This document shows positions 1 to 62,809 of a stretch of 64,000 nt of DNA, in pieces. The stretch is taken from positions 3,768-67,767 of the forward strand of contig CAYYLO010000003.1 in the NCBI GenBank assembly GCA_964472675.1, in the 5' to 3' direction. Under the pieces are notes generated by a model. That model did not search any database. It saw nothing but the letters and a program-made list of their open reading frames with translations, and was not told the DNA's origin. The translations under genes and the position numbers were made by a program. This DNA comes from an uncultured Gammaproteobacteria bacterium. GTDB lineage: Bacteria; Patescibacteriota; Microgenomatia; UBA8517; UBA10165. Position 1 is the stretch's first letter. Each line of letters starts with the position of its first letter.

Positions 1-55
1 TAGTTTGATTGTAGCAGTTTCGAAAGTTGAGGCCAACTTGTGTACAATATACGCT

Positions 56-1144
56 ATGGACACAGATGAGCAAATTAGGGCAATAGAGATTGAAATGGCC
101 AAGACACCGTATCACAAGGCTACGCAGAAGTGGTTTGGGAAGATGCGGGCCAAAATTGCTAAATTGCGGGCACAAGAGACAGACCGCCAAGTTAAAAAAG
201 GTGGCGGTGGGGGTGGCGGGTTTGGCCTCAAAAAGTTTGGCGATGCGACTGTTGTATTAGTTGGTTTTCCTTCTGTTGGCAAATCAACACTTCTAAACAA
301 ACTTACCAATGCCAATTCCCCAACCGCTGAGTACGCGTTCACTACAGTTTCTGTAATACCAGGGATGATGAATTACAACGGCGCGCAGATACAAATTTTG
401 GATGTGCCGGGTTTGATTGAGGGCGCAGCCCGTGGTTTTGGCCGAGGGCGGGAAGTTTTGTCTGTTGCTCGCGGGGCAGACCTTTTGCTGCTTATTGCTG
501 AAGCCGGACACGAGAAAAGCCAGTTTACCAAGATTGAAACTGAGCTTTATCAAAACGGGGTCCGTTTAAATGAGGAAGAGCCGAATGTAGTTATCTCAAA
601 AACTTTACGGGGTGGTATTAAAATCAATTCCACAACATCACAAGAGCTATCCCGGGAGACAATTGTGGAAGTTGTCCATGAATTTGGCCTCATAAACGCA
701 GAAATTACGATCAAAGAAAAGCTTGACCTTGATCGTTTAATTGATGCTTTTGCTCCCAACAGAGTTTATATGCCTGCTTTATATGTAATTTCGAAAACAG
801 ATAAACATAAAGCGAAATATGAGCATGTGATTTCAATAAGTGCTGAAAAAGAAATAGGACTTGAAGAATTAAAGGAAGCGATATGGAATAATCTCAGATT
901 AGTGAGAATTAACCTAAGACCAGCCGGAAAATTAGCCTTACACCCCCGAGGTGTAAGCTCAAACGTTGAGCCACTGATTATGCATGAGGGGCAGAAGTTA
1001 AAGGACGTTTTGGAAGCGGTTAGCCGTGAGATGGCTCAAGACAAGAAAGCAGCAAAAATTTGGGGACCAGGGGCAAGATTTCCGGGGCAAACAGTTTCAT
1101 TTGAAACGCGAATACAGGATGGTATGGAGGTTACCTTTATCTAA
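56..1144 (+). CDS. DRG-family (Obg superfamily) GTPase with C-terminal TGS domain; true start probably Met at 56 (ORF opens at 5)
   Basis: G1 motif GFPSVGKSTLLNKLT, DxxG (LDVPG). DRG-specific N-terminal helix (EIEMAKT..HKAT..AKIAKLRAQ) and glycine-rich linker. C-terminal TGS-like segment (RLVRINLRP...). Confidence 0.65.
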   Translation: MDTDEQIRAIEIEMAKTPYHKATQKWFGKMRAKIAKLRAQETDRQVKKGGGGGGGFGLKKFGDATVVLVGFPSVGKSTLLNKLTNANSPTAEYAFTTVSVIPGMMNYNGAQIQILDVPGLIEGAARGFGRGREVLSVARGADLLLLIAEAGHEKSQFTKIETELYQNGVRLNEEEPNVVISKTLRGGIKINSTTSQELSRETIVEVVHEFGLINAEITIKEKLDLDRLIDAFAPNRVYMPALYVISKTDKHKAKYEHVISISAEKEIGLEELKEAIWNNLRLVRINLRPAGKLALHPRGVSSNVEPLIMHEGQKLKDVLEAVSREMAQDKKAAKIWGPGARFPGQTVSFETRIQDGMEVTFI

Positions 1145-12452: not shown

Positions 12453-12544
12453 CTCGTTTACAATAGCCTTACCTTCTACTTGCCTTATTTCACCAAACAA
12501 AACCCAGAATTAAGCAATAAATAATTTGACAGGGAGGTGAAACA

Positions 12545-12865: not shown

Positions 12866-12903
12866 GGTTTTGTGCTAAAATTACCTTGTTCGTTGGACCG
12901 GTT

Positions 12904-12977
12904 GCGGGATTAGTTGAACGGCCCAACATCTGCTTTCCAAGCAGAAAAAACGGGTTCGACTCCCGTATCCCGCTCCA
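12904..12977 (+). tRNA. tRNA-Gly (TCC), CCA encoded
   Basis: Acceptor GCGGGAT/ATCCCGC, anticodon loop TTTCCAA, T-loop TTCGACT. Confidence 0.85.
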
Positions 12978-17184: not shown

Positions 17185-17216
17185 TCCAAACCAGAATGGT
17201 TTTTGAAACCTTCCAT
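17185..17216 (+). repeat. ~33-bp direct repeat, right copy (pairs with 14958-14990)
   Basis: See left copy; begins 5 nt after the GIY-YIG stop codon. Confidence 0.6.
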
Positions 17217-18611: not shown

Positions 18612-18697
18612 GCCCGGGTGCTGGAATTGGTAGACAGTGTGGCCTTAAGAGCCATTGCTCCTAAAAGAGCGTGTGGGTTCGAGTCCCTCCCCGGGCA
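18612..18697 (+). tRNA. tRNA-Leu (TAA), class II with long variable arm
   Basis: Acceptor GCCCGGG/CCCGGGC, anticodon loop CTTAAGA, variable arm TGCTCCTAAAAGAGCG, T-loop TTCGAGT. Confidence 0.8.
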
Positions 18698-26520: not shown

Positions 26521-26611
26521 GGACGGGTGGTGAAATTGGCAGACACGCAGCGTTCAGGGCGCTGTGAGCTAAAAAAAGCTCATGCGGGTTCAACTCCCGC
26601 TCCGTCCACCA
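26521..26611 (+). tRNA. tRNA-Leu (CAG), class II, CCA encoded
   Basis: Acceptor GGACGGG, anticodon loop TTCAGGG, long variable arm, T-loop TTCAACT; extended -10 tgatatatt about 10 nt upstream. Confidence 0.8.
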
Positions 26612-26682
26612 CAAGAAGTTTGTAAGTGTGATTATCTCCCCCGCTAAATGTTTGATCCCATTTGTGATAAAATAGCTACCAG

Positions 26683-26764
26683 GCCAGGGTGTCGTAACTG
26701 GTAGCCGAGCACGCTTGAGGTGCGTGTGGAGAAATCCGTGCAGGTTCGAGTCCTGTCCCTGGCA
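26683..26764 (+). tRNA. tRNA-Leu (GAG), class II
   Basis: Acceptor GCCAGGG/CCCTGGC, anticodon loop TTGAGGT, variable arm, T-loop TTCGAGT. Confidence 0.75.
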
Positions 26765-26790
26765 CTATCTAAAGACAATTAGTGATTCGT

Positions 26791-26861
26791 TGCGGGATCG
26801 TCTAGTGGTAGGACACGGGACTTTGGATCCCGGTACCTAGGTTCAAATCCTAGTCCCGCAG
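26791..26861 (+). tRNA. tRNA-Gln (TTG)
   Basis: U1-A72 and G73 as in bacterial tRNA-Gln; anticodon loop CTTTGGA; T-loop TTCAAAT. Confidence 0.75.
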
Positions 26862-27015
26862 CAAAACGAAGTTTTGCAAGGGACAAAAGGAAATTCTTAT
26901 TTCCTTTTAATCCCGCTTCCTCCCAAGGAGGAATTATACGCTCGAATTTTTTTTAGACACTTACCGCGAAAGTGGGCGCCATAGGCGCAACTTAAGTTGG
27001 GTAAGCACTTGAAAA

Positions 27016-27088
27016 GGACAAGTAGCTCAGTTGGAAGAGCATTCGGTTTACATCCGAAAGGTCACAGGTTCGAGCCCTGTCTTGTCCA
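27016..27088 (+). tRNA. tRNA-Val (TAC)
   Basis: Acceptor GGACAAG/CTTGTCC, anticodon loop TTTACAT, T-loop TTCGAGC. Confidence 0.85.
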
Positions 27089-31719: not shown

Positions 31720-31977
31720 TTGGAATATGGTGTTCCAACCATCATCCAAATTGTCCACCATATGGCAGCTAAAAAATTGAGAAGATCATCGACTAATAAA
31801 GTTGTTAGTGGTATATTAGGTGGAATCGGAGAATACTTAAATATTGATCCGGTTGTGGCAAGAATTGTGTTTCTTGCGATCGCAATTTTTACAGGCTTTA
31901 TTCCCGGGCTACTATTCTATTTATTAGCACATTTAGTAGTCCCGGAAGCATCAAACGAAAAATTTAAGCCGAGCTAG
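31720..31977 (+). CDS. PspC-domain membrane protein (alternative start ATG 31762)
   Basis: KKLRRSSTNKVVSGILGGIGEYLNIDPVVARIVFLAIAIFTG..LLFYLLAHLVVP matches PspC domain. Confidence 0.6.
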   Translation: MEYGVPTIIQIVHHMAAKKLRRSSTNKVVSGILGGIGEYLNIDPVVARIVFLAIAIFTGFIPGLLFYLLAHLVVPEASNEKFKPS

Positions 31978-32040
31978 CCAAGTTGGTCACGGCGGGCCCC
32001 TGAAGAGGGTCAGATTTCGGTTCGATTCCGGAGCTCGGCA
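31968..32040 (+). tRNA. tRNA-Phe (GAA)
   Basis: Acceptor GCCGAGC/GCTCGGC, anticodon loop CTGAAGA, T-loop TTCGATT. Confidence 0.8.
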
Positions 32041-32114
32041 CAAACAAATCACATTCGTCCGCGGGTATAACAACCTTGCTTCGCAAGAACGTTGTACGCC
32101 GCTCAAGTATTTTC

Positions 32115-32188
32115 GCGGGTATAGTACAATGGTAGTACACCTGGTTGCCAATCAGGGTACAGGGGTTCGATTCCCCTTACCCGCTCCA
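32115..32188 (+). tRNA. tRNA-Gly (GCC), CCA encoded
   Basis: Acceptor GCGGGTA/TACCCGC, anticodon loop TTGCCAA, T-loop TTCGATT. Confidence 0.85.
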
Positions 32189-35633: not shown

Positions 35634-37055
35634 TCACTTGTCAAGAGATTGTGGTAAAAGCTCCTTGAGGCGAAGCTTGAAGTGATAGGCGCGGGCAAAA
35701 CGGTGGGCTTCGTCGCGCATGCGCTGGAGAAGTTTTGTCGCTGGATTGTCCTGACCCAATCGCACTACATTGAATCCACCATCAAACAGTGGAATTACAA
35801 TTTCCTCCTCTCTTTTGGCTAGACCTATTGTGGGGATTACGCTTCCACCTCGGGGGTGTAAAGCTAAAACTTCAAGTGCGGCCGATACTTGTCCTTTGCC
35901 GCCGTCAACAACAATTAGGTCTGGTTTGCCCCAGTCTGCTAAGTGCGAGAACCGACGTGTGAGTGCCTCACTTAGTGAAGCAAAGTCATCAACCCCCTTT
36001 ACCTTCTTTATTCTAAACCTGCGATAGAGCTTCTTTTCCGGTTCTCCGTCGATAAAAGTAACCATTGAGCAGGTTGTCTCTTTACCGCCGGTGTGGGCAA
36101 CGTCGTAACACTCAATTCGGTGGATGGCGCCGAGTGATGGGTGATAAGCGCTTAAAATGTCTTGGAGTGCGCGCAGTTCTTCTTCACGGATGTCGGAAAC
36201 CAAATTTGGGTTCTCCAAATAGGCTTTTGGCTTTTCGTACGGCTTGGTAATGTAAGAAATCTGACGCAACTGGTCGCGAATTCGCGCAGCAGCTTCAAAA
36301 TCTTCCCGCAAGGAGGCAGCTTTCATTTCTCCCAGCAGTTGCTTTTCCAGACGTTTAGTTTTACCTGAGAGCAACGTGGTTATTTTGCGAATGTTGGACT
36401 TATATAGCGCAGTCAGTCTAAGGCGAGAGTCCCGCCCCTGGCGAGGCTCGCCTCCGGCGGCTAAGTCTAAGTCGTGTACGATATTGTTAGGACAAGGATT
36501 ACAAAGTCCGATGTGGGAGTAAAAACAGCCGCGTTTGCCAAGTTTTTTTTGTGAACAATATGGAAAAACCTTTCTGATCTGCCGCAAAACACTTTTTATA
36601 TTGGCTGATGAAGGAAAAGGTCCGAAGTAGCGGTCTCTTTTTGCACTTTTTCCGTTTGTGAAATCTTCACGCCTTGCCATACCCACTTTGGGGAACTCCT
36701 CACTTGTGGAAATTTTGATATAAAGAGGATGTTTGTCGTCTTTGGCGGCTGAGTTGTATTTAGGCAGATGCTTTTTGATTAGTTCTGCTTCCAGAAGAAG
36801 TGCTTCTAACTCTGAAAACACTGGTATTGTGGCAACCTCTATTGCCTCGCGTGCAATATCCTGACTTTTTGTTCCTCGCGCCTGAAGGTGTGAAGAAACT
36901 CTCTCATACACATTTATGCTTTTCCCGACATAAATTGCATTGCCTTGCGCATTTTTAAAAATATAAACCCCAGGCCCTTTAACAAGACTTTTTGCCTGTT
37001 TTCCTAGATCTGATATAAATGAAGGCATAGTTGGCAATAAATCCTCCACCAGCAA
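35634..37055 (-). CDS. uvrC: excinuclease ABC subunit C (short form, 473 aa)
   Basis: N-terminal GIY-YIG (GPGVYIFKN..GNAIYVGKSINVYERVSSH); UvrBC-interaction and endonuclease regions. Confidence 0.8.
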   Translation of the reverse strand: MLVEDLLPTMPSFISDLGKQAKSLVKGPGVYIFKNAQGNAIYVGKSINVYERVSSHLQARGTKSQDIAREAIEVATIPVFSELEALLLEAELIKKHLPKYNSAAKDDKHPLYIKISTSEEFPKVGMARREDFTNGKSAKRDRYFGPFPSSANIKSVLRQIRKVFPYCSQKKLGKRGCFYSHIGLCNPCPNNIVHDLDLAAGGEPRQGRDSRLRLTALYKSNIRKITTLLSGKTKRLEKQLLGEMKAASLREDFEAAARIRDQLRQISYITKPYEKPKAYLENPNLVSDIREEELRALQDILSAYHPSLGAIHRIECYDVAHTGGKETTCSMVTFIDGEPEKKLYRRFRIKKVKGVDDFASLSEALTRRFSHLADWGKPDLIVVDGGKGQVSAALEVLALHPRGGSVIPTIGLAKREEEIVIPLFDGGFNVVRLGQDNPATKLLQRMRDEAHRFARAYHFKLRLKELLPQSLDK

Positions 37056-38850
37056 ATCCCAAAAGAACTATAAATACAGTTACCATTTGTAACATCTGGA
37101 TGCTTTTTGGGGAGATTTCGTAGGTTTTGCTGTATTCCCCTACTTTAACTTGTATTTTACTACTTTTATCTGCTCCAAGCAGCGGAATTGTATATTGAAT
37201 ATCAAATGATGAGGTGGATTGAGGCGCAAGAAAGTCTAGGTTATTATAAACATTACCTCTTATGTCCAGCCCGCTTGAAACAACGGTTATTGGTTTTTCG
37301 TAAAGCGCTACAGGTCCGGGGTTATATATATTAATATGAAGTTTATTTAAGAAAAAAGGCAAAAGAGATTTACCTTGGGTTATTGTAATTTGTGGGATTG
37401 ATTCCCGAACTATTGGCAAATGTCCGAACTGTACTGAAACGTCACGTTGATTATTGTGGGCAAGTTTGTAAGAACCAGCGGGGGCAGGGGAATCATCGTT
37501 TTTGCCGTGGATTGAAAACGTAATATGGGACATATCAAATTTATTAAAATAATCGATTCCGCCCGTAGTTTTACCCCAGGTAGGATCAACAGGTTTCCAA
37601 ATGCCCATATTCTTGTCCCAATATTCCGGCCAGGCATGTAAAACATCTGCAACTAGAGATAGTGGTTGGATTTGGGGATTGTCTGTGTAAGCAAAACCAT
37701 TGACTTCTCTCGCGGGAATCTTTGCCGCACGGGCAAGCGTTACAAATAAATCTGTAAATTCCACACAGATTGCGTTATCGGGGGTTGCCAAAGCTCTCTT
37801 TGCCCCAAGCCTTTCTATGTTATTGGTTACGCGACTGTAATCGTAGCTAAGGGTCTTTACGACAAACTCGTAAATTGACAAAGGATCATTCCCAACAGAT
37901 TGAGCCATTAATTTTATTTCCGGATCATTCGCCGGCCAATATTTTGTGCCGGAAAGATAGTAAGGGAAGTCGTTCGGGCTTGTTGATACATAAAAGGTTT
38001 GCGGGTTTGCGAAAACCTGTACATTTCCGCTGGCTTGAATATCCATCTTTTCTCCAGGTTTAAGGTAATACGTAGCCATCCAGTTGCCATCGGAGTCGAG
38101 CGCTACCGAATAGGGTTTGGGTGAGATTTTAGAGTAATAAACTTTTTGATAAGCAGTATCCGGAATTAGCGCAATTGATGTTTTACCCTTTTTGTCTAAA
38201 TATGGATTTTCGAGGTGATAGTTTAAGTCAAAAGAAAAAACCTGAAAATCCCCAAAAGCAGCCACAACTCCTGCCTTCAAAATATCTTCTTTCACAAAAG
38301 TAAATGTAGTTTCTTTTTCGCTTTCAAATTTGCTTTTAGGTTCCGGGGAAATATAAGCAAGTTTTCCCAAGTTTTTTGAAACAGTTAAAGACAAGTTGTA
38401 AGAGTTAAAATTGTCTACTGAAGTAATCTTCGGAATTGTTAAGTCCCAAACTTGACCGTTTTGTGAGGCAAGTTGCGGAATTTGGTAGGCAACGGTAAAT
38501 TTTCTTGATTTGTTTTTCCCGACTATCGCATCAGGAAAATTAACAAGAATTTTTGTTTCTGTGTCTGTTTGCTCAACAGAAACAGTGATCCCTTTCCCGG
38601 ATTCTATAGCTGTAACTCCAACAGGCTTTTTACCTTCCAGGCTTAGAGAATAAGAAGTCGCGTAAATTGTAGAAAAATTATTTGTTAAAGTTATTTCCTG
38701 AGTGACCTGCGCGTCTCCGTTTTGGTCAACAATGTATGTAGTAGCAAAGTCGGTTTTAAATTCCTGCTGGGCGGAGGCGGTCCGCGGCAGTGCATAGTAC
38801 ACAGCGCATAGTATGCAGGACAAAAAAATTACATTTAGAATGCGCTTCAC
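36979..38850 (-). CDS. transglutaminase-like cysteine protease-domain surface protein (signal peptide + C-terminal TM anchor)
   Basis: Core AICVEFTDLFVTLARAAKIPAREVNGFAY ... LHAWPEYW gives a Cys-His-Asp transglutaminase-like triad. Confidence 0.6.
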   Translation of the reverse strand: MKRILNVIFLSCILCAVYYALPRTASAQQEFKTDFATTYIVDQNGDAQVTQEITLTNNFSTIYATSYSLSLEGKKPVGVTAIESGKGITVSVEQTDTETKILVNFPDAIVGKNKSRKFTVAYQIPQLASQNGQVWDLTIPKITSVDNFNSYNLSLTVSKNLGKLAYISPEPKSKFESEKETTFTFVKEDILKAGVVAAFGDFQVFSFDLNYHLENPYLDKKGKTSIALIPDTAYQKVYYSKISPKPYSVALDSDGNWMATYYLKPGEKMDIQASGNVQVFANPQTFYVSTSPNDFPYYLSGTKYWPANDPEIKLMAQSVGNDPLSIYEFVVKTLSYDYSRVTNNIERLGAKRALATPDNAICVEFTDLFVTLARAAKIPAREVNGFAYTDNPQIQPLSLVADVLHAWPEYWDKNMGIWKPVDPTWGKTTGGIDYFNKFDMSHITFSIHGKNDDSPAPAGSYKLAHNNQRDVSVQFGHLPIVRESIPQITITQGKSLLPFFLNKLHINIYNPGPVALYEKPITVVSSGLDIRGNVYNNLDFLAPQSTSSFDIQYTIPLLGADKSSKIQVKVGEYSKTYEISPKSIQMLQMVTVFIVLLGFAGGGFIANYAFIYIRSRKTGKKSC

Positions 38851-38897
38851 AAGACTAATCTTAGCACAGCTATATTACTCCTGTGATATATTAAATT

Positions 38898-40568
38898 ATG
38901 CCCGAACAAGTAGAGGCTAGTGGTATTTCCTCAATTCAGACGGCAACCTCTTCCCCTGAATTTCAGAACTTTGCAAAGAGCCGTTTACAAGAATTTATAC
39001 AGGCAACTTTGAAAGATAGAGCCTCGCTTTTCTTGCTTTCTGAAGCGTCCAAGGTTGACTTGAGTGCGCCCGACATACAGCCCCAAGTTGCAATGGCAGC
39101 TTTTCTTTTGCTACGCAGACAATGTCCAACTGTTTGGGATATTGGGGCTGCTCTTCAAGCCGCCGAAAGCAGGCTCCAATATGGCCAAGGTCAAACTGTC
39201 CGAGCAGGAGCGATTGGTACAGATCCTCAGTTGATGGGAAGTATACAAAGAGGCAGTACTTTTATTGGGGAATTTGCGCGAGAAGTTTACGAACAATCCG
39301 GCACGCCAGTCAGCGATCGGACTAAAGATGCTATTCTGGGTCGGTTCAACACATGGGCCTCTGTAAAAACAGTTCCGGACGAAGCTTATTACGTTCGGGA
39401 AATGGCAGTTTGTGCAGCTTCGCAAAACCTAACGCAGCAGGATGCGGCAGCAGTTCTTCGGGGTATTGAAAATTATAAGAGATATAATTTTTGGCCATTA
39501 AGCCAATATGGTGCACAACAAGCCCGCTACGCTCGCTTTAACCAAGCGCTTACTCGCCTGCAACTTGTATCGGCCGGCCACGTTTCTGGCGGAGGACATC
39601 TTGACCAGTATGAATCACTGATACACTTGCCTTCGCAGTCTCAAGCGGAAGTTGTTAAACAAGCTGACCTGGTGAAGCCTGAAAGTGCAATAGGCACAGA
39701 ATTATCTTATTGGGAAAATTCAATAGGTAACGAAGGTGGGCGTTGTTTAGTTAACCGAGTTGAAATGCAACAAAGATATACTTTTGCGCATACAGAACGG
39801 GGGAGGTTTGTTTATTACACGGCTACAAACCAAAATACAGAGCCTTTGCTAAATCGATTTGATGAAATAAACAGGCGCCTTGCTCAAACTTTGGGCACAG
39901 ATGGTACAAAGCCTGTACATGTAGTTTTGGTACCCGAAGCCAAGTATTGCCCAAGGGGTGGCTATGCAAAGCCTGACGGCTCGGGTTTTATTTTAGCTCC
40001 GGCGCAGGATATTGATCAGGTTTATGCACATGAGGCAGTTCATGCAAACCTTGCCCAGATTTTTGGGACAAGCCAAAGCGCTACAGCTACCGAGGGGGCA
40101 GCAATGTATTTGGCACGCGTGGTTAACCCCTATGATAAGAGAAACGACTATGTAGCACAAAGATATGGTGATGATCAAATAATCAGAATAAGAGGAAAAG
40201 GCGGCCAAATTGGGCTTTCAAATACGCAAATGCTGGACAATGCCGGCGAGGCAAGATCTAAAGCTGATTATGAGTATGCATATAAATTTGGAGGGTTGTT
40301 GGCGGAATTTATTATCAGTAGAGTTGGTATTAAAGGTTATTTACAGTTTTACAACCGAACTTGCCTGTCCAACTTATACGATAGCGATACAGGAAAACAA
40401 CTGGTGGCAAATGGCAAGAGGGCGCCAGGTGTAGGTGAACGCGAAATTAACGCCCAAGCTTTAAAGGCCATGGCTGCGCTAACAGGCAGACCAGACATGA
40501 GGCCTGAAAATATATTACAAGAATTTACGGCTTTTGCCTTGGCCCGAAACGCCAAAGGCCCCTTCTAA
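38898..40568 (+). CDS. hypothetical HExxH-motif protein (putative zinc-dependent hydrolase), GC-rich (~50%)
   Basis: VYAHEAVHANL contains HEAVH; no signal peptide; GC and codon usage differ from flanks. Confidence 0.4.
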   Translation: MPEQVEASGISSIQTATSSPEFQNFAKSRLQEFIQATLKDRASLFLLSEASKVDLSAPDIQPQVAMAAFLLLRRQCPTVWDIGAALQAAESRLQYGQGQTVRAGAIGTDPQLMGSIQRGSTFIGEFAREVYEQSGTPVSDRTKDAILGRFNTWASVKTVPDEAYYVREMAVCAASQNLTQQDAAAVLRGIENYKRYNFWPLSQYGAQQARYARFNQALTRLQLVSAGHVSGGGHLDQYESLIHLPSQSQAEVVKQADLVKPESAIGTELSYWENSIGNEGGRCLVNRVEMQQRYTFAHTERGRFVYYTATNQNTEPLLNRFDEINRRLAQTLGTDGTKPVHVVLVPEAKYCPRGGYAKPDGSGFILAPAQDIDQVYAHEAVHANLAQIFGTSQSATATEGAAMYLARVVNPYDKRNDYVAQRYGDDQIIRIRGKGGQIGLSNTQMLDNAGEARSKADYEYAYKFGGLLAEFIISRVGIKGYLQFYNRTCLSNLYDSDTGKQLVANGKRAPGVGEREINAQALKAMAALTGRPDMRPENILQEFTAFALARNAKGPF

Positions 40569-40585
40569 AGGAAACTTAAAAATTA

Positions 40586-41371
40586 TTGAAGTTTTTATTT
40601 GGGGTTATAATGGAAGTTATGGGAGAGGTTGTTACGGAAAGTTTAACTGCAAAAGAGACAAGGATAGATTTTCCTCAAAAGTTTAAAGAAACGCTAAAAA
40701 CGTGCGATTATACCTTACCTGCAGAGAGTGTGGGGATAACTACTGGATTGGGAAAGGCAGGAATTTTAAGGGTTAAAAGGCTTGTGCCTTGCGTAATTTT
40801 TGATACTGGAAACATAAGTGCCTCAGAATGGCATTTGGCGCTTACAGATGCAAAAGCGGTAGCCGACCCACACAAAAAAATCCTTGAAGAGTTAAAACCA
40901 TTACTTCCGCAAGATAGCGCCACAATAATTACAGAGCTTGCACAAACGGCATACGTTGCCGAAGACCAAACAGGCAAACTAAGCTTATTGCTTAGCAACC
41001 TTGACAGCAAAATAACCAAGGAGCTTTTGGAAAGTCCTAACCAACTAGAACCCTTCAAGAAACTAATCAAAAATTACGGATTGCTTCAAATTGTGGGAAA
41101 AGTAAGTGCAGACGAACATGATTATCATACTGTTTGGGGAGAAAAAGTAGAAGTTTTAGTTAGGGAAGATACTCAAGATAGGCCAGTTAATATTGCAGAT
41201 GAAAGGCAGAGATTTAATCCGTACCAGGATCCTGATGAATCGGCCATAGCCTTAGCCAGAGAAAACCATCTTACGAATACACAAGCGTTGAAACTTGCTT
41301 CTCGATTGCGAGCTGGAATTGAATGGCCAAATTATCAAAAATTGATTGTAGATATCCTTGATGAGGAGTAA
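40586..41371 (+). CDS. hypothetical protein, co-oriented with HExxH protein (18-nt gap)
   Basis: 261-aa ORF, no motif. Confidence 0.4.
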   Translation: MKFLFGVIMEVMGEVVTESLTAKETRIDFPQKFKETLKTCDYTLPAESVGITTGLGKAGILRVKRLVPCVIFDTGNISASEWHLALTDAKAVADPHKKILEELKPLLPQDSATIITELAQTAYVAEDQTGKLSLLLSNLDSKITKELLESPNQLEPFKKLIKNYGLLQIVGKVSADEHDYHTVWGEKVEVLVREDTQDRPVNIADERQRFNPYQDPDESAIALARENHLTNTQALKLASRLRAGIEWPNYQKLIVDILDEE

Positions 41372-41565
41372 GTTCTACACCCTATGGGCCCAGGTGCAGC
41401 GCTTATCGCAGGCGTGTGCATTACTGTCGGGGCTGGAGGGCTGTACGCCTACATTACTGGCCGGCTGGGCTAAGAAGAAACCTACCCGCGGACGGCTCCT
41501 AGATTTTCTTTCATACACTTTTTGTATCACTGGCTATCTTGGAGCCGCCCGCCTTTTTTTTGCTT

Positions 41566-41582
41566 GACACCCCCGAGGTGTA
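41566..41582. repeat. REP element (hairpin ACACC-CCCGA-GGTGT), 5' of RAYT gene; overlaps -35/-10 promoter TTGACA(41564)-17-TAAAAT(41587)
   Basis: gacacccccgaggtgta. Inverted 13-mer cacctcgggggtg at 42254-42266. Identical 17-mer at 62499-62515. Confidence 0.6.
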
Positions 41583-41597
41583 AGGCTAAAATAAATA

Positions 41598-42275
41598 ATG
41601 CCAGGCAGAAAGATACCCCTTGTTAACGGAGAGTTTTACCACATTATTAATCGTGGAAGCGACAATAGGAAAATCTTCTTAACTGAAAGAGACTATAAAA
41701 GGTTTCTTAGCGCACTTTTTTATTATCAGTACCATGGGCCAAAGCCTAAATTCTCAAATTTATCTGCACAAAAACTTCAGCTGTGGAAACCAAAAGAAGA
41801 AGACAAACTTGTTAACATAATTTGCTATTGTTTAATGTCCAACCACATACACTTACTAGTTCAGCAGTTAAAGGACGATGGCATCTCGATATTTATGTCA
41901 CAGTTATGCAATAGTTATACAAAATATTTTAATACCAAACACAAACGTATTGGTCCGCTACTCCAAGGCCGCTTCAAGTCGGTACTCGTAGGGGATGATT
42001 ACCAGTTACTACATGTTTCTAGATACATACACATTAATCCTGTTGTTGCTCGCATGGTAATCAGACTGGAGGACTATACATGGTCCTCCTTTGCTCAATA
42101 TGTGGGTTCAGTAAATGGGTTTTGCACTCCGAAAAAAATAATGGAACAATTCAAGTCGCCTCAAGAATACAAAAAAATCCTGGAAGATCAAATAGGTTAT
42201 GGAGAAACCCTTGAAACAATAAAAAACCACTTGGCCGACGACTATTACGATGACACCTCGGGGGTGGAAAGCTAA
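41598..42275 (+). CDS. REP-associated tyrosine transposase (RAYT, IS200/IS605-like Y1 HuH transposase)
   Basis: YHIINRGSDNRKIF, HuH motif NHIHLLV, catalytic Tyr region VSRYIHINPV; flanked by inverted REP hairpins. Confidence 0.75.
   Translation: MPGRKIPLVNGEFYHIINRGSDNRKIFLTERDYKRFLSALFYYQYHGPKPKFSNLSAQKLQLWKPKEEDKLVNIICYCLMSNHIHLLVQQLKDDGISIFMSQLCNSYTKYFNTKHKRIGPLLQGRFKSVLVGDDYQLLHVSRYIHINPVVARMVIRLEDYTWSSFAQYVGSVNGFCTPKKIMEQFKSPQEYKKILEDQIGYGETLETIKNHLADDYYDDTSGVES
42252..42268. repeat. REP element, inverted copy 3' of RAYT gene
   Basis: gacacctcgggggtgga; core is the exact reverse complement of the upstream 13-mer. Confidence 0.6.
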
Positions 42276-45226
42276 AGAATCTCTGTGAGAAACTGGCCTG
42301 TATAGGATTTTTTGTTTTGTGCAACTTGCGAGGGAGTGCCGGCGGCAATGATTTCTCCACCTTTCTCTCCTCCTTCAGGGCCCAAATCAATAATCCAATC
42401 CGCGTTTTTGACAACGTCTAAATTGTGTTCGATAACTACAACTGTGTTACCCATAGAAACTAATCGCAAGAGGCATTTCAAGAGTTTTTCAATATCAGAA
42501 AAATGTAAACCCGTTGTAGGTTCATCAAGAATATAAAAAGTTGAACTGCCCGCCCGTTTCATGAGCTCTGAGGAAAGCTTAACGCGCTGGGCCTCACCGC
42601 CCGATAAGGTTGGCGCAGACTGGCCCAGCTCAATATAATCAAGCCCCACCTCAGACAAGGTATCTAATTTATCGGCAATGTGAGGAATATTGGCAAAGAA
42701 TTCTTTGGCTTCAGCAACAGTCAAATTCAGCACTTCAGCAATATTTTTTCCATGCCATTCGACTTCTAGAGTTTCTCTGTTAAATCTTGTTCCGTTACAG
42801 ATATCGCAGGTAATATAAACGTCAGACAAAAACTGCATTTCAATTTTGTTTACACCTTGTCCTTCGCAACCCTCGCACCGCCCCCCTTTGACGTTAAAAG
42901 AAAACCTTCCTGCTTTATAGCCGCGAACACGAGCCTCTGGAGTTTGGGCAAATAACGCCCTTACTTCGTTAAAAACCCCTGTATATGTTGCAGGGTTTGA
43001 GCGTGGTGTCCGGCCAATTGGTGATTGGTCCAGTAAAATCAGGCGGTTGACCTGATCTGTGCCTTCCAGACGCTCAAAATCACCATTTTTGGAAGTGTAA
43101 GGCAGGTTCCTTTCCTGCCATGAACGGTTTAGGGCATCATGAAGTGCAGGATAAAGTGTGTCTACTAATAATGTTGACTTGCCTGAACCGGAAACACCAG
43201 TGATGCAAATTAGCTTTTGTAGAGGTATTTTAACATTTACATCTTTTAAATTATGCTCACTTGCACCAGTGAGTTGAAGATATCCTTTATCGTCTTGAAC
43301 CAAAGTATCGTGACCATCGGATTTGTTAACCCACAAGTCCTTTTTCCCGGATAAATATTTGGCAGTTACAGAATCCTTGTGTGCCAAAATTGCCGGAAGA
43401 TCGCCTTGGGCAACCAGCGCTCCACCCTGTTTACCTGCCCCAGGACCAAAGTCCAAAATCCAGTCAGCTTTTTCCATCATCTCCCGATCATGCTCAACAA
43501 CTATTACAGTGTTCCCCAAATCCCGAAGGTTTTGCAAAGTACTTATTAAACGCCGGTTATCTCTCTGGTGAAGTCCTATTGTTGGTTCATCAAGAACGTA
43601 TAAGACGCCGCTTAGTCCTGACCCGATTTGCGAAGCCAAGCGAATTCTTTGAGCCTCCCCGCCCGCCAGTGTGCCAGAGGATCTGTCTAAAGTTAAATAT
43701 TCAAGTCCAACGGAAACTAAAAAATGAAGCCGCGAAACTATTTCCTTAAGAATCATCCTGGCAATTTCCTGCTCTCTTTTTGAAAGCGGCGTGTCCTTGC
43801 CTGAGAGCATTTGAGCAAACTTTAAAGAGTTGGCAATTTGCATACGCGTTACGTCAACGATTGACTTGCCATCAACAGTGATCGATAGAGCCTCTTCCTT
43901 TAATCTTGCGCCTTTGCAATCTGGACAAACTTGTTTTTGCATATATTTTTCAATCTCCGCGCGGGCATAATCCGAATCACTATCTGAATGTCTTCTTTCA
44001 AGCTCTGGAATTATTCCGTGGAAGGCCTCTTTTATATAAGTTTTTTCACCAAATTTATTTGTTCCCCAAACTTTGTATATTTGACTACCTGTGCCCCAAA
44101 GAAGAATTTTTACCTGTTCCTGAGTTAAATTCTTCAACGTGATTTGAATGCTAAAGCCATTTTCCCTGGCTACTTGTTCAACTATTCTTGAATACCAGGT
44201 TTCATTTTCGAACATCGTCCCCATCGGCAATATCGCACCTTCAGACAACGTCAGTTCAGGATTAACTAACCTCTCAGGATCAATTTTTAACAAAGCTCCG
44301 ATACCCGAACAGGTTGAACAGGCCCCATGCGGAGAATTGAAAGAAAAAGTGCGGGGCTCAATCTCCGGGAAACTGATATTATCAACAGGACAGGAAAATT
44401 TCTCAGAGAAGAGGTGGTCTTCTAGTTTTTTTGGACTGTCAGGAATACTAAAGCTCGAATCGTGGACTTGAGATAAAATTATCAAGCCTTCAGAAAGTCC
44501 CAAACCTTGTTCTATAGAATCAGCAAGCCGTAAGCGAAGATTATTTTCGGCAATTTTGTCGCGTAATTGTTTTTTCTCAATAGAGATTCTATCAATAACT
44601 ACGTCAATTGAGTGCTTATTGGTCTTTATTAAAAATAAATCCTCGTCCAGACCGTATATTTTTCCATCAACTCTGACGCGGGTAAAACCTTTAGCACGCA
44701 AATTGGCAAAGAGGGTGGTAAATTCCCCTTTTTTGTCGCGGACAACAGGAGAAAGCAGCAAGAATTTTGCGATCTTTTCTTTATCGGCAACCTCCTTGAT
44801 CATGCTTAGGGAGTTGTTGGTTATAGTTTCAACAGACTGTTGTTCAATTTCGCGGCCGCAAATCGGACAGTGTGGGTGGCCAATGCGCGCAAAAAGCAGG
44901 CGCAGGTAGTCGTAAATTTCGGTTATTGTCCCTACTGTGGAGCGGGGATTATGGGAGGTGGTTTTTTGCTCTATAGAAATTGCAGGCGACAAACCTTCAA
45001 TGCTATCTACATCAGGTTTATCCATAATCCCTAAAAACTGCCTTGCATAAGAAGACAAACTTTCCACATACCTCCTTTGACCTTCAGCATAAATTGTGTC
45101 AAAAGCCAAAGAGCTTTTACCTGATCCAGAAATCCCCGTAAAAACAACCAGTTTGTTTTTCGGAATCTCTACATCGATGTTCTTGAGGTTATGTTGTCTG
45201 GCTCCCTTAATAATAATTTTATCCAT
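42272..45226 (-). CDS. uvrA: excinuclease ABC subunit A (start trimmed to MDKIIIKG)
   Basis: Two ABC ATPase modules ([12 protein letters not shown]; [10 protein letters not shown]), zinc-finger Cys clusters, signature LSGGEAQR. Confidence 0.9.
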
Positions 45227-45284
45227 GTCCACCAATAAATGCCCGCGATTAACGCGGCGCAAGTAGTATATCACGACTGGTTCC

Positions 45285-47303
45285 TCAAATACTTTCCAGC
45301 TGGCGGACTCTGTCGCGGAACTTGGCGGCAAGTTCAAAGTTTAAATCTTTTGCGGCGGCGGTCATGGCCCGCCTTAGCTTCAAGATCATATTTTTTCTAT
45401 CTCTTGGGGTAAGCCCGTCGGGGCTTAAATTTTCAAAGCTGTTTACCACATCCCGTTCGATACCGTACAACAGAGGTTCTGTCTCCTGAACTTGCCCGCG
45501 GTCGATTAACTTTTCGCGGATGGGTTTAACAATTGTTTTTGGGGTAATATTGTGATTTTTATTGTAGTCAAGTTGAAGCAAACGCCTTCTTTCAACTTCG
45601 CGTATAGCCCTCTGCATCGATCCGGTAATGTTATCAGCATACATAATAACTTTGCCTTCTATATGCCGTGCAGCGCGGCCCATGACTTGAATTAGAGAAG
45701 TTTCAGACCTTAAAAATCCTTCTTTGTCGGCGTCCAGGATGGCAACCAGAGAAACTTCCGGAAGATCCAAGCCCTCGCGAAGAAGATTAATTCCTACCAA
45801 AACGTCGTAGTCTCCCCGCCTTAACTGGTCCAAAATATCCGTCCGGTCAAGAGTATTAACTTCAGAATGCAAATACTGAACTTTAAGGCCTTCATCTTTG
45901 AGGTATGAAGTTAAATCTTCAGCCATTCTTTTAGTCAGCGTAGTAACTAAAGTTCGCTGCTCCTTTTTGACTCTTTCCGAAATTTCCCTAATTAAATCCG
46001 GAATCTGCCCTTCTGTCGGTTTGACAACCACTTCCGGATCGGGAATACCCGTTGGACGGATCAACTGTTGTGCAATACCATTTTTACCCGCTCTGGCAAG
46101 CTCCCAGTTGGCAGGAGTGGCGCTTGTGTATAAGACTTTAGGCGTGCGTCTCAAAAACTCTTCAAATTTCAGGGGACGGTTGTCATACGCTGACGGAAGT
46201 CTGAACCCAAAATCAATCAATGTCCGTTTTCTGGCTAAATCTCCGTTGTACATTCCCCCAATCTGCGGAATCGTCATATGCGACTCGTCAATAACAACTA
46301 AAAAATCATCACCGTAATTGTGCTTGTAGTAATCAAGAAGAGTGTATGGAGCGTCCCCTGATTTGCGGCCGTCAAAGTAGCGCGAATAATTTTCAATTCC
46401 ATTAACGTAGCCAACCTCTTCAATCATTTCCAGGTCATATGTAACTCTCCTCTCAACACGGTTGGCTTCCAAAAGCTTCCCGGCATCTTTAAAATTTTTA
46501 ACGACTCTTTGCAAGTCTTTCCTAATTTGTCCAAACACCCCCGCGTGTTTCTCGCGATCCATCATATAGTGTTTGGCCGGATAAATTAATGTGGACCTTA
46601 AGTCTGAAAGCGCTTTGCCGGTATTCGGATCAATAATCGAGAGTTTTTTTAAGTTTTCCTGTTCAAATTCCAAACGGACGGCCGTATCTTCATACGCCGG
46701 AAAAATGTCGATTATGTCTCCCCTAACCCGCCAGGCGCCTCTATGAAAACCATAGTCTCCCCGCTCGTATTGCAAATCAATTAACCTTTTTGAAATATCC
46801 TGTCGCGCATAGCTTTTCCCAACTTCCAGTTCCAGGACAAAGTTTCCGTATTCCGAAGGCGAGCCGATATTATAAATACAGGAAACAGAAGCAACAGTAA
46901 TAACGTCTTTTCGGGTCATGAGATTGGTTGTGGCGCGCAGGCGGAGTTTGTCTATCTCGCGGTTGATATCGGTTTCCTTTTCAATATAGGTATCAGTTTG
47001 CGGGATATATGCTTCAGGTTGGTAGTAGTCATAATAAGAGACAAAGTAGGAAACGCCATTTTCCGGGAAAAAATCGCGCAACTCCTGATAAAGTTGTCCG
47101 GCTAAAGTTTTGTTGTGAGAAATAACCAGCGTTGGAAGCTGCAGCTGCTCAATGACAGAAGCAACAGTGAAAGTTTTTCCTGAACCCGTGACTCCCAAAA
47201 GGACCTGGTCAGTTGCTCCGGTTTTTATTCCTTTTACCAGCTGATCAACGGCCTGCGGTTGGTCGCCTGTGAGTTTATATGGGGATTCTAATTTAAACCT
47301 CAT
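45285..47303 (-). CDS. uvrB: excinuclease ABC subunit B (start trimmed to MRFKLESPYKLTGDQ)
   Basis: Helicase motif GVTGSGKT, beta-hairpin region, C-terminal UVR domain (AAKDLNFELAAKFRD). Confidence 0.9.
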   Translation of the reverse strand: MRFKLESPYKLTGDQPQAVDQLVKGIKTGATDQVLLGVTGSGKTFTVASVIEQLQLPTLVISHNKTLAGQLYQELRDFFPENGVSYFVSYYDYYQPEAYIPQTDTYIEKETDINREIDKLRLRATTNLMTRKDVITVASVSCIYNIGSPSEYGNFVLELEVGKSYARQDISKRLIDLQYERGDYGFHRGAWRVRGDIIDIFPAYEDTAVRLEFEQENLKKLSIIDPNTGKALSDLRSTLIYPAKHYMMDREKHAGVFGQIRKDLQRVVKNFKDAGKLLEANRVERRVTYDLEMIEEVGYVNGIENYSRYFDGRKSGDAPYTLLDYYKHNYGDDFLVVIDESHMTIPQIGGMYNGDLARKRTLIDFGFRLPSAYDNRPLKFEEFLRRTPKVLYTSATPANWELARAGKNGIAQQLIRPTGIPDPEVVVKPTEGQIPDLIREISERVKKEQRTLVTTLTKRMAEDLTSYLKDEGLKVQYLHSEVNTLDRTDILDQLRRGDYDVLVGINLLREGLDLPEVSLVAILDADKEGFLRSETSLIQVMGRAARHIEGKVIMYADNITGSMQRAIREVERRRLLQLDYNKNHNITPKTIVKPIREKLIDRGQVQETEPLLYGIERDVVNSFENLSPDGLTPRDRKNMILKLRRAMTAAAKDLNFELAAKFRDRVRQLESI

Positions 47304-47481
47304 TTGCAAATTGTACCATAGATTACCCAAAAACTGGGTCTTGACAATCGGGTTTTGTTAGGGTAGATTGAAAATACCAAATATAAAATATTAAAAATCA
47401 AAAATACACAGCAAAAAGGCAAAATTTATCTGTTTAATATGTCTATTTGAGATTTGATATTTAATTTTTGATATTACAACC

Positions 47482-48099
47482 ATGCCACCTGTTATTTATA
47501 CCAGACAGCGCCAAATTCTTGACTTTATCAGTCAGTTTATTGACGCTAACGGATGTGCGCCCACTTTAAAACAGATTGCCCAGGCAATTGGTGTTTCTTC
47601 TTTAGCAACAGTCCACGAGCATCTTCAGGCTTTGGAAAAGAAGGGCTTAATAAAAAAACACGTTGGCGATACCCGCGGAATTGAATTAACAAAAATTACT
47701 CCTCGTGTTACTCCCGGAGTTGAGGTTCCCATCATGGGATTTATTGCAGCAGGGGCCCCTATTGAACCGTACACTGATCCTAATGCGACTCTTTCAATTC
47801 CTCCTGCGATGTTTTCTTCTACTAAAAGAATCTATGTTCTTCAAGTTCGCGGGGAATCTATGATTGAGGTAGGGATAAATGATGGCGACTATGTTGTCAT
47901 TGAACAACAGGACCGTGCCAGCAATGGTGAAATAGTCGTTGCCCTTCTGGACAATGGCATGGCGACGTTAAAGCGCTACTTTAAGGAGACTACAAGAATC
48001 CGGCTTGAACCAGCCAACCGCACCATGAGCCCGATTTATGCCAAGAACGTCACTGTTCAAGGTAAGGTTGTCGGCTTAATTCGCAAATACGCGAATTAA
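47482..48099 (+). CDS. lexA: LexA repressor (S24 peptidase), divergent from uvrBA
   Basis: N-terminal winged HTH; cleavage-site region GFIAAGAPIEP; Ser/Lys dyad context (RGESM...K). Confidence 0.85.
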   Translation: MPPVIYTRQRQILDFISQFIDANGCAPTLKQIAQAIGVSSLATVHEHLQALEKKGLIKKHVGDTRGIELTKITPRVTPGVEVPIMGFIAAGAPIEPYTDPNATLSIPPAMFSSTKRIYVLQVRGESMIEVGINDGDYVVIEQQDRASNGEIVVALLDNGMATLKRYFKETTRIRLEPANRTMSPIYAKNVTVQGKVVGLIRKYAN

Positions 48100-61090: not shown

Positions 61091-61415
61091 ATGGCACTGA
61101 ATATATACTGGGTTATGGCATTTGATAAGACAGAATTAAAACAACTTCAAGAACTGTTCAAGGAAAACAATAAGGCTATAGCAGAAGCCGTGTCTAAGGG
61201 TTTTGAAGTTATGGGCGAACAAATTGAGGGTACGAGATCAGAAATCCTTGGAGGGTCGATGATCTCGAGAAAAAGGTTGATGTTGGTTTTGAGCGAACCG
61301 ACGACTCTCTCGATAGAAAAAATCTAAAGGGGTATAACCACGAACAAAGATTAATCAAGTTGGAGAAAATTCATCCAAAAGGTAAGCACGCTATACCTGT
61401 TTCCAGTTGAAAATT
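61091..61415 (+). pseudogene. frameshifted paralog of small protein 8984-9220 (C-terminal IHPKGKH motif lies in a different frame)
   Basis: ORF 61091-61327 N-terminus (TELKQLQELFKEN) resembles (QDLEQIEELIEEK). Downstream frame encodes HEQRLIKLEKIHPKGKHAIPVSS*. Confidence 0.35.
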
Positions 61416-62809
61416 ACTCCTTGTGCGCCCAGTAGTTCTTCCATCAATAAGACCACCTTCTTTAGTCCAATCCCGTTTTTGGCTTCAGCGCGGAGGGATA
61501 AGACATTTTCAGTATTGGAGAGACGAATTAGGCCCCAGCTGCTGTTGGGAAAAGTGAACAAAACTCCATCTGTTAGATTAATTCTTGCCTCCGGGTACTT
61601 CTTTATTATCTCTTCTTTCACTTTTTCAATAAGTTTTTCTTTGTCTGCCCGTTCGGGAAGATTTACTCGAACTTCTTCCGTTGCGTAAACTTTAGGAAAT
61701 GTATGCACAAGTTGAGAAACGGCAACCTTTTTCTCCCCAATAATCTGGCAAAAACGTGCCGCGGCATAGGTTGCATCACCAAATCCATAATATTCATCCT
61801 TAAAGTAAAAATGTCCCGACAATTCTGCTCCAAAGGGAGAGTTAGCTTTTTGCATAGTATTCATCATAAACGGATAACCAGTTTTTGAATAAACGACTTT
61901 GCCGCCGTGCTTTTCTATATAAGTTGTTGCTGCGCTTGACGTGCCCACATTAACAACCATGCTCTCACCTGGCTTTTTCTCTAAAATGGATGCGGCAAAA
62001 ATTGCCCCCAAAAGATCATCTTGTACAAAAAAACCTTTTTCATCATAAATTCCCAGCCGATCTCCATCCCCGTCAAAAGCCAGCCCAAAATCTGCCTTGT
62101 TCTCTTTGATGGAATAACTTAAATTTTTATAGTTATCAGTTAATTGCGGATACGGCAAGTGGTTGGGGAACGTACCGTCCGATTCAGTATAAAGCTCGAT
62201 AACTTCGCAACCCAAACTTCTAAAAAGGTCAGGCGCAAAAAGTCCTGTCGTTCCGTTGCCCGAATCAATAACTATTTTTAATTTCCGAGGCATCTTAATC
62301 AACTGGAGTATCTGTTCTTTATAACTTGGCCAGATATCTTCCTTTTGCAATTTGCCCTTGCCTTTCTCAAACTTGCCAATCTTAATAATTTTTGCCAATT
62401 CCTGGTAGTCTTTTGTCGAAAAAGGCTTCTTGTTAAAACTAATTTTTAATCCATTAAATTCCGGCTTATTGTGGCTTGCCGTTATAGAAACTCCTGCAGA
62501 CACCCCCGAGGTGTACTCTGAAAAGTTAGCCATAGGTGTTGTCACGATTCCTAAATTTGTAACACCACAACCTGTGGAAAGTAGACCCTCTATAAAACTT
62601 TTCGACAAATCTTCACCGGAAGGCCGGTTATCACGGCCCACAGCAATGCTATTATTTGAAACGTTGGCTGATCCGTGACAAATTACATACGTTCCAAAAG
62701 CCTGCCCCAAAGCAAAAAATACATCTTCATTTATTTCTTCAGGATAAACACCACGAATATCATACGCATGGAACATACCGCTTGTTAAAGAAGGGAGCAT
62801 CAACCTCAA
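61391..62809 (-). CDS. phosphoglucomutase/phosphomannomutase family protein
   Basis: Active-site GVSITASHNKPEFNGLK (TASHN), Mg-binding DGDGDR, sugar-binding GEESG-like region. Confidence 0.85.
   Translation of the reverse strand: MRLMLPSLTSGMFHAYDIRGVYPEEINEDVFFALGQAFGTYVICHGSANVSNNSIAVGRDNRPSGEDLSKSFIEGLLSTGCGVTNLGIVTTPMANFSEYTSGVSAGVSITASHNKPEFNGLKISFNKKPFSTKDYQELAKIIKIGKFEKGKGKLQKEDIWPSYKEQILQLIKMPRKLKIVIDSGNGTTGLFAPDLFRSLGCEVIELYTESDGTFPNHLPYPQLTDNYKNLSYSIKENKADFGLAFDGDGDRLGIYDEKGFFVQDDLLGAIFAASILEKKPGESMVVNVGTSSAATTYIEKHGGKVVYSKTGYPFMMNTMQKANSPFGAELSGHFYFKDEYYGFGDATYAAARFCQIIGEKKVAVSQLVHTFPKVYATEEVRVNLPERADKEKLIEKVKEEIIKKYPEARINLTDGVLFTFPNSSWGLIRLSNTENVLSLRAEAKNGIGLKKVVLLMEELLGAQGVIFNWKQV

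Follow-up and report, generated by a model that had tools for sequence, protein, structure and literature searches.

We analyzed a stretch of 64,000 nucleotides of contig CAYYLO010000003.1 (assembly GCA_964472675.1, positions 3,768 to 67,767), referred to here in its entirety as the window. It carries a gene for a 225-residue protein that resembles the REP-associated tyrosine transposases (RAYTs), REP being the repetitive extragenic palindrome that accompanies them. The gene lies between two short hairpins with a common 13-base core, and the same core recurs inside three other genes: those for a ribosome-binding GTPase, for UvrC, and for a phosphoglucomutase/phosphomannomutase (pgm). An earlier note on this DNA had described the open reading frame (ORF) with its NHIHLL and RYIHINP motifs, the 17-mer in front of it and the inverted core behind it, the identical 17-mer in pgm where it encodes YTSGVS, and a promoter-like site whose −10 box ends 5 nt before the ATG. 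All of these were exactly as claimed. The copies that it listed were correct, and its count was short by two, the exact copies in the GTPase gene and uvrC. Positions are collected in Table 1.

Table 1. Features of the window, numbered from its first nucleotide
Feature	Position	Strand	Core	Remarks
RAYT-like class-2 Y1 HuH nuclease gene	41598..42275	+		225 aa; Pfam, conserved residues, AlphaFold2/Foldseek
Upstream hairpin element	41559..41589	+	CACCCCCGAGGTG, 41568-41580	30 nt before the ATG; 17-mer gacacccccgaggtgta at 41566-41582
Downstream hairpin element	42245..42275	-	cacctcgggggtg, 42254-42266	Inside the ORF 3' end; abuts the uvrA stop codon
Promoter-like site	41564..41592	+		TTGACA-17-TAAAAT enclosing the upstream hairpin; 11/12 in promoter scan
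GTPase intragenic copy	932..962	+	941-953	Ribosome-binding GTPase ORF 5..1144 (+); encodes LALHPRGVS
uvrC intragenic copy	35837..35867	-	35846-35858	uvrC ORF 35634..37055 (-); encodes LALHPRGGS
pgm intragenic copy	62499..62515	+	62501-62513	pgm ORF 61391..62809 (-); encodes YTSGVS
Repair/SOS gene cluster	35634-48099			uvrC, transglutaminase-like, 1-3 ORFs, RAYT-like gene, uvrA, uvrB, lexA
Extra UvrC segment	~36440-36540			NNIVHDLDLAAGGEPRQGRDSRLRLTALYKS, codons ~187-220
Further hairpin	17187-17203			AACC-AGAAT-GGTT
Eleven tRNA genes	9805-10414, 12380-12974, 18612-18697, 26521-27088, 31968-32185			Cluster of five at 26521-27088

The identity of the protein was examined at the level of domain, residues, and fold. 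The ORF scored 35.4 bits against the Pfam model Y1_Tnp (PF01797) over residues 62 to 145, where the gathering cut-off is 23, and the RAYT call of the earlier note is borne out to that extent. In an alignment of 46 homologs, the HuH motif N82-H83-x-H85 (N82-H83-I-H85 in the window protein) and the catalytic tyrosine, Y143, were invariant. An N-terminal YHxxNRG motif and a WSS motif were likewise invariant. The tyrosine signature reads YIHINP in the window ORF and YIHLNP in the family consensus. This is the Y---NP signature of class 2 of the TnpA-Y1 proteins, as opposed to the Y---Q of the IS200-type class 1.1 (PMC6006769).

AlphaFold2 returned a model with a predicted local distance difference test score (pLDDT) of 87.4 and a predicted template modeling score (pTM) of 0.84. 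It recovered the IS200-like fold, with residues 188 to 220 as a single long C-terminal helix. The best PDB match of this model by Foldseek was 4ER8, the E. coli TnpA-REP protein with a REP hairpin (E value, 1.2e-7; target-normalized TM score, 0.74), while the IS608, ISDra2, and IS200 transposases ranked below it. A family profile compared with the PDB sequences also found E. coli TnpA-REP (4er8) as its only match (E value, 0.0014); a single-sequence phmmer search of the ORF against the PDB gave no match. A word-indexed search returned 2,473 homologs. The exhaustive search returned 24,100 clusters at 50% identity with an E value of 1e-3 or less, which is the wider superfamily, and 342 clusters at 1e-30 or less. 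As judged from its sequence, the ORF is a class-2 Y1 HuH nuclease, conserved and apparently catalytically competent.

Homologs are about 216 residues long, compared to 225 in the window. The last nine or so codons of the window ORF run through the downstream hairpin and end in TSGVES before the stop. The geometry forces this reading, because the stop of the ORF and that of the convergent uvrA gene overlap at 42272-42275. Several homologs end in TSGV, TSKV, or TFEV, which represents the same reading into a downstream hairpin. The gene belongs to Candidatus Blackburnbacteria (Microgenomates, Candidate Phyla Radiation [CPR]), assembly GCA_016187265.1, and was present in identical form with both of its hairpins in five independent assemblies.

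The downstream core is the reverse complement of the upstream core, and in total the 13-mer occurs as five exact copies in the window. The expectation was 0.50 matches even with up to two mismatches allowed, and none of 100 shuffled sequences reached five. No copy with one or two mismatches was present in the window, and a further 8.8 kb of contig on the right and 2.1 kb on the left contained no additional copies. The motif is enriched beyond the gene itself, with five exact copies in about 75 kb, which agrees with the reading of the earlier note. Four of the five copies resemble one another over a longer stretch, a quasi-palindrome of about 31 nt, TTAGCCTTA-CACC-CCCGA-GGTG-TAAGGCTAA. The pgm copy has only 17 nt in common with the others.

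Folded as single-stranded DNA, the copies formed stems of 4 to 10 bp at −3 to −7 kcal/mol. The GTPase copy is the best-preserved of the ~31-nt palindromes and gave the strongest fold (−7.4 kcal/mol; z, −5.9). The upstream hairpin folded into an interrupted stem of 5 plus 4 bp (−6.4 kcal/mol; z, −2.9), and orthologs have a hairpin of their own at this position. The downstream copy aligns with the uvrC copy over about 31 nt, and the same element stands in the same place in a related lineage (L140/L143; L numbers denote loci in other genomes). By hand count, the flanks of the two gene-side copies match at 12 of 18 positions in direct orientation and 10 of 18 in inverted orientation. The orientation of the whole flanking element cannot be assigned, because the flanks are themselves quasi-palindromic. 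An Rfam scan of the whole window found only the 11 tRNAs and nothing at the hairpins.

The upstream hairpin is enclosed by the promoter-like site, and the −10 box is so near the ATG that a Shine-Dalgarno sequence would not fit. Two orthologs showed the same geometry: TTGACA-17-TAAAGT-6-ATG at L227 in genome B, another Blackburnbacteria genome, and TTGTAA-17-TAAACT-6-ATG at L126. From sequence, a leaderless mRNA starting at this site is plausible. The location of the hairpin between the −35 and −10 boxes suggests autoregulation of the leaderless transcript.

We then asked how general the flanking hairpins are. For 68 loci, we compared the 160 nt upstream of the gene with the downstream flank and measured the longest exact word that they share in direct or inverted orientation; mismatched pairs served as controls. 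A shared word of at least 13 nt was found at 51 of the 68 loci compared to 4 of 204 controls, and the medians were 15 and 8 nt. These words are hairpins with locus-specific loops, located 20 to 100 nt upstream of the ATG and 15 to 60 nt past the stop. The commonest form is (N)CACC(T)-NNN-(A)GGTG(N). The orthologs inspected first have an xACC-N5-GGTx hairpin upstream of the start and another just after the stop, with a sequence that depends on the locus: AACCTTAAAGGTT at L126, AACCTGAAAGGTT at L129, CACCTTAAAGGTG at L131, and CACCTTCCAGGTG at the second L131 paralog. The stems covary (CACC/GGTG, AACC/GGTT, CAATCC/GGATTG, and CGATCC/GGATCG, with ACACTCC/GGAGTGT in distant members). Complementary stems of differing sequence imply that pairing is kept while the sequence changes. 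Direct and inverted configurations of the flanks both occur, with about half of the loci direct, and the inverted cores of the window represent one of these two common states.

In three distant homologs (L192, L201, and L224), the hairpin that flanks the gene is also found inside it, about 160 to 165 nt in, and in L201 again at about 206. These in-gene hairpins recall a feature of subclass 2.4, for which REP insertions inside the tnpA-REP genes have been described.

Genome B (GCA_016198465.1; L227 and L141) allowed a direct comparison with the window. Its ortholog is intact, with 216 residues, and is 60% identical to the window protein, compared to 76% for uvrC. The gene is flanked by CACCTGGAAGGTG upstream and CACCTTCCAGGTG downstream, with the loop TGGAA/TTCCA. 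Across 35 kb of genome B, four copies of this hairpin type are present: one on each side of the gene, one in pgm, and one in a GTPase gene insertion that is specific to B. The hairpin and the protein thus change together between the two genomes. At the orthologous pgm site, the window has TCAGAGTACACC-TCGGG-GGTGTCTGCAGGAG (TACACC-TCGGG-GGTGTC), and genome B has TCAGAGTACACC-TGGAA-GGTGTCCGCAGGAG (TACACC-TGGAA-GGTGTC), with the same stems. In each genome the pgm loop is the loop that flanks the RAYT-like gene of that genome, for which we estimate a chance of about 2/1024 per genome. Taken together, we consider it probable that the locus is a REPtron-like unit, in which two cognate mini-hairpins enclose a transposase-derived Y1 HuH gene that is inherited vertically, with a few dispersed hairpin copies elsewhere.

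These hairpins could instead be regulatory or structural signals of the host, the upstream one an operator in the promoter and the one between the convergent genes an element for RNA stability or termination, with the nuclease taking no part in their spread. The upstream copy lies exactly between the −35 and −10 boxes, the downstream copy lies at a convergent-gene junction, and REPs are known as RNA elements (PMC3733652). However, such signals would not explain exact copies in three unrelated coding sequences, the same hairpin on both sides of the gene at 51 of 68 loci, or a pgm loop that in two genomes is that of the resident RAYT-like gene. There is also no T-run after the hairpin, and no terminator was called. 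We regard host signals as an unlikely explanation.

The copies inside genes were compared with homologous proteins. In the GTPase, the element is an 8-residue insertion, L(A/S)LH(P/L)RG(G/V), that is found in 6 of 18 homologs and absent from the rest. The window uvrC copy sits in the linker between GGKGQ and GLAKREEE, where the protein has 2 to 3 residues more than its homologs; in the L143 lineage, this linker holds a hairpin insertion of another kind, which is longer. For pgm, the earlier note had asked whether the 17-mer is ancestral coding sequence or an insertion, and it is neither conserved ancestral sequence nor a plain insertion. The protein is unchanged in length relative to 14 homologs. 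In the window, YTSGVS stands seven residues upstream of ITASHN. The hairpin is limited to close relatives of the Blackburnbacteria type with 81% identity or more (YTSGVS or YTWKVS). It is absent at 72% identity and below, and the 72%-identical homolog has YESNLI and no hairpin.

In the Daviesbacteria metagenome-assembled genome (MAG) L129, REPIN-like inverted doublets of CACCTCCGAGGTG are present in uvrA (L129:9299-9335) and uvrB (L129:12309-12351). The uvrB doublet, CACCTCCGAGGTG-N17-CACCTCGGAGGTG, is a clean 17-residue insertion, EHLRGGVAPAAHLGGEF. This doublet type differs from the hairpin that flanks the L129 RAYT-like gene, which implies another cognate paralog elsewhere. A longer second element, GGTGGCG..CTAGAC-CACC-loop-GGTG-GGACAGAT(A/T)CGCCACC, was seen at L143:3890-3965 (uvrC) and L227:10750-10825 (GTPase). 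It is in frame in different genes and different reading frames in two Blackburnbacteria lineages, and its flanks are co-oriented while its 5-nt loop is inverted (TGGAA versus TTCCA). A further extra segment in the window UvrC, which does not contain the 13-mer, exceeds the corresponding stretch of L126 and L129 by 17 residues and that of genome B by 11.

The genomic context of the gene is conserved. In five sets of loci, at 54 to 81% identity, its neighbors are transglutaminase/uvrC to one side and uvrA/uvrB/lexA to the other: the window, L126-128 (P0051; 58% by alignment), L129 (about 54%), L143-146/L140 (81%), and L227. The same position across five lineages or genera argues for vertical inheritance rather than an actively hopping insertion sequence. 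Homologs at 34 to 54% identity are in other contexts. A tblastn search with UvrA, UvrB, UvrC, transglutaminase, DinB, and LexA gave no real matches near homologs at any of 80 metagenome loci (0/80), which implies that the uvr synteny is confined to the orthologous subgroup.

An autonomous insertion sequence of the IS200/IS605 type, whose left and right termini would be the two hairpins and whose footprints or solo ends would be the remaining copies, would account for the IS200 fold, for the direct hairpin orientation in about half of the loci (as in the left and right ends of IS608), and for the two divergent paralogs on some contigs (L131 and L148). It does not fit the shared chromosomal position at 54 to 81% identity or the single gene copy in the window, and paralogs from one contig have diverged strongly, with 41% and 59% identity to the query. 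The signature is Y---NP (class 2) and not Y---Q (class 1.1), there is no tnpB neighbor, and the best structural match is TnpA-REP and not an insertion sequence transposase. This explanation is quite improbable.

Another view of the 13-mer would be as a genome-wide recognition word, of the DNA-uptake type or the target of some other system, that stands beside the gene by accident. The core is indeed exact, lacks degenerate variants, occurs in coding and noncoding DNA, and is found in other MAGs (L138, L139, and L228). Its density is low, homologous loci have their own differing word at both flanks (51/68), and the word changes together with the gene from the window genome to genome B, all of which make a recognition word very improbable. 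Chance or an assembly or binning artifact has a negligible likelihood even for a MAG, given five independent assemblies with the gene and both hairpins, orthologous copies in other genomes, and the shuffle statistics.

Several observations weigh against the REPtron-like reading itself. The NCBIfam equivalog model NF047646 (REP_Tyr_transpos) gave 54.5 bits, below its cut-off of 80. None of the five copies has a GT[AG]G at the foot of the hairpin on either strand; a semiconserved flank, TTAGCYTTA, stands where it would be. The copy number is low in the ~75 kb of contig, and most homologous loci have no extra hairpin copy within 6 kb on either side. Binding, cleavage, and strand transfer would all be carried over from relatives that are only about 17% identical. 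Subclass 2.1, which is nearest by motifs, was reported without REPs, and this qualifies the reading as well. In the whole assembly of a related species, Candidatus Blackburnbacteria MHBW01, there are only three matches to an extended pattern, and the gene is 5'-truncated there. Finally, two copies in genome B do not have the loop that flanks its RAYT-like gene: the uvrC copy CACCTCCGAGGTG (loop TCCGA, one base off that of the window) and a second GTPase copy, CACCTCGAAGGTG (loop TCGAA). With these two loops differing, homogenization of all copies to the resident type was rejected. The CACCTCCGAGGTG type flanks a homolog at L171, and the CACCTCGAAGGTG type flanks homologs at L162, L167, and L172, all metagenome loci. 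Extra paralogs in genome B are a possible source of the odd loops.

Because of the missing GT[AG]G foot, the very short hairpin, the low copy number, and the NCBIfam result, we do not file the system as a canonical RAYT. It is filed as a REPtron-like, subclass-2.1-like CPR branch. The REP/RAYT arrangement proposed in the earlier note stands in substance, with the Y1_Tnp domain, the 4ER8 fold match, the shared flanks at 51 of 68 loci, and the loop that changes with the gene. It does not stand in its canonical form, for which the foot is absent, the stem short, the copies few, and the NCBIfam score too low.

The matches in MHBW01 came from a contig scan of one genome per species with the extended pattern CACCTCGGGGGTGNNARGCNAA, a collection that does not include the window's own genome. 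It gave eight matches, three of which are chance matches in GC-rich genomes. A 14-mer scan of viral contigs was uninformative, with at least 120 single chance matches; a pattern of at least 18 nt is needed. The MHBW01 copies are at the 3' end of the orthologous gene, directly upstream of murA, and upstream of a PBP1A gene. In the MHBW01-like lineage (L140:5533-6285 and L143:9339-10441), the ortholog lacks a start, a promoter, and the upstream hairpin and has kept the 3' hairpin. A 169-residue ORF overlaps the 5' end of the gene, and gene callers give only a 146-residue fragment. The few element copies in MHBW01 are consistent with decay after loss of the enzyme. At L134:7485-7515 (MHBW01), the element ends in GGTGTAAGGCTAAAAT right before the murA ATG. 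Its 3' arm supplies the sequence in front of the murA start, in the form of an AAGG some 7 nt before the ATG or of a TAAAAT box, and may affect expression of this neighbor.

The identical 13-mer with matching flanks was also found at L138:5961-5973 and L139:4773-4785, in low-GC MAGs (34 to 38% GC) labeled "uncultured Gammaproteobacteria." Both copies are in frame, in a methyltransferase-like ORF (KLALHPRGV) and a dihydroorotase (HLGGG), respectively. L139 has CACCTCCGAGGTG and CACCCTCCGGGTG hairpins as well. Either the element family extends beyond Microgenomates or these bins are mislabeled.

We compared the unit with known systems. Like the REPtrons (E. coli YafM TnpA-REP/RAYT, PDB 4ER8; Pseudomonas REPIN-RAYT), it is a class-2 Y1 HuH gene bracketed by a cognate palindromic repeat that is specific to each enzyme lineage. 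The gene is low copy and vertical, the repeat is dispersed beyond it, and the L129 relative has REPIN-like inverted doublets in uvrA and uvrB. Unlike in the REPtrons, the hairpins have no GT[AG]G foot, and the core stem is 4 to 5 bp with a loop of 3 to 5 nt instead of 10 to 14 bp with a bulge. There are a handful of copies in 75 kb rather than hundreds per genome, most of them are intragenic, the equivalog score is below the cut-off, and the host is a CPR bacterium.

By motifs, the nearest group is TnpA-Y1 subclass 2.1 (Quentin et al. 2018, PMC6006769), which corresponds to the Group 1 RAYTs of Bertels, or TIRYTs. In a comparison with the motifs of Table 1 of that paper only, NH[YF]H, FQ, Y[IV]HLNP, and SS of the subclass match NHFH (NHIH in the window), L(L/F)QG, YIHLNP (YIHINP in the window), and WSS of the family. 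Subclass 2.1 proteins have a median of 238 residues and a C-terminal helix-turn-helix (DnaA_C-like), and the subclass was reported either to lack REP-like sequences or to have GGGGWSAS terminal inverted repeats (PMC6006769). In contrast, the family described here has about 216 residues and hairpins that flank the gene family-wide. No Pfam match to a C-terminal helix-turn-helix (Bac_DnaA_C-, HTH_23-, or HTH_28-like) was found in the ORF at an E value of 1 or less.

The intragenic copies have parallels of their own. In-frame intragenic REPs have been described in other phyla, with a marked excess in uvrA, uvrB, uvrC, and other repair genes (Di Nocera et al. 2013, PMC3733652). As with these and with the Rickettsia palindromic elements (PMC3733652; Ogata et al. 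2000, cited there), the palindromes are in frame in protein linkers, and the uvr parallel extends to uvrC (window and L143) and to uvrA and uvrB (L129). The elements here are shorter than those, at 24 to 27 nt for a single element and 51 nt for a doublet; the pgm copy leaves the protein length unchanged, and orthologous sites bear different loops between genomes. The IS200/IS605 elements (IS608 and ISDra2) share with the unit the fold, the catalytic motifs, subterminal hairpins on both sides, and a presumed single-strand chemistry. Those elements are Y---Q, multicopy, mobile, and often accompanied by tnpB, whereas the gene here is Y---NP, syntenic, and single copy per locus.

For the REPtron-like unit, we propose a mechanism modeled on TnpA-REP and IS608 (PMC8266576, PMC6006769). 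By analogy to E. coli TnpA-REP and IS608 TnpA, the protein would recognize the hairpin folded on single-stranded DNA, e.g., at the replication fork. Cleavage beside the hairpin would use Tyr143 with a HuH-bound metal. The cut end could then be rejoined to another hairpin copy, so that hairpin modules would be copied to other sites or swapped with them. Enzyme lineages differ in the loop, which is therefore the likely specificity determinant. This genome is gene-dense, and the surviving copies accordingly sit where a gene ends or in linkers of housekeeping proteins that tolerate them in frame, as in the GTPase, UvrC, and PGM. The upstream hairpin might let the protein autoregulate its own transcript.

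The pgm sites with the same stems and flanks and different loops, together with the flipped loop of the longer element, suggest replacement or inversion of the loop in place. We tentatively raise the possibility, which we hold to be rather doubtful, that hairpin copies are rewritten in place and not only inserted, with the loop replaced or inverted and the stems kept. This might proceed by nicking and resynthesis or by strand exchange at the hairpin. Parvovirus HuH Rep proteins offer an analogy for loop inversion in flip/flop hairpin transfer. Independent insertion and ordinary small inversions at inverted repeats remain as alternatives to rewriting.

The surroundings of the gene gave some additional observations. 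The gene is embedded in a repair/SOS cluster, which also occurs at L126, L129, L143, and L227, and one L131 paralog adjoins a gene for a Y-family (DinB-type) polymerase. The RAYT-like gene may be linked to DNA damage in function or regulation. SOS control was considered and dropped, as the interval between uvrB and lexA showed no evident LexA-box-like palindrome. The AACC/GGTT hairpin in Table 1 has a loop otherwise unseen in the window and may be due to chance, with about two such hairpins expected per 64 kb by rough estimate. The tRNA genes are unrelated to the unit.

Most descriptions of REP/RAYT systems concern Proteobacteria and Cyanobacteria, and we found no description of such a system in CPR bacteria in the searchable literature. 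Subclass 2.1 (Group 1), the largest RAYT-related subclass, has been reported without associated repeats (PMC6006769). Here, a large CPR branch with subclass-2.1-like motifs (the 342 clusters) is almost always bracketed by a locus-specific mini-hairpin, and in at least two genomes this hairpin has reached further sites. Where a genome has about 1 Mb and hardly any intergenic space, the repeats land in frame in essential genes, including those for nucleotide excision repair, which bear REPs in unrelated phyla too. The pair of genomes with different loops at the same sites is a tractable natural experiment on the coevolution of a domesticated HuH nuclease with its target and on conversion in place. 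If in-place rewriting is true, it would represent a new route for REP-family turnover and for small recoding events in essential proteins.

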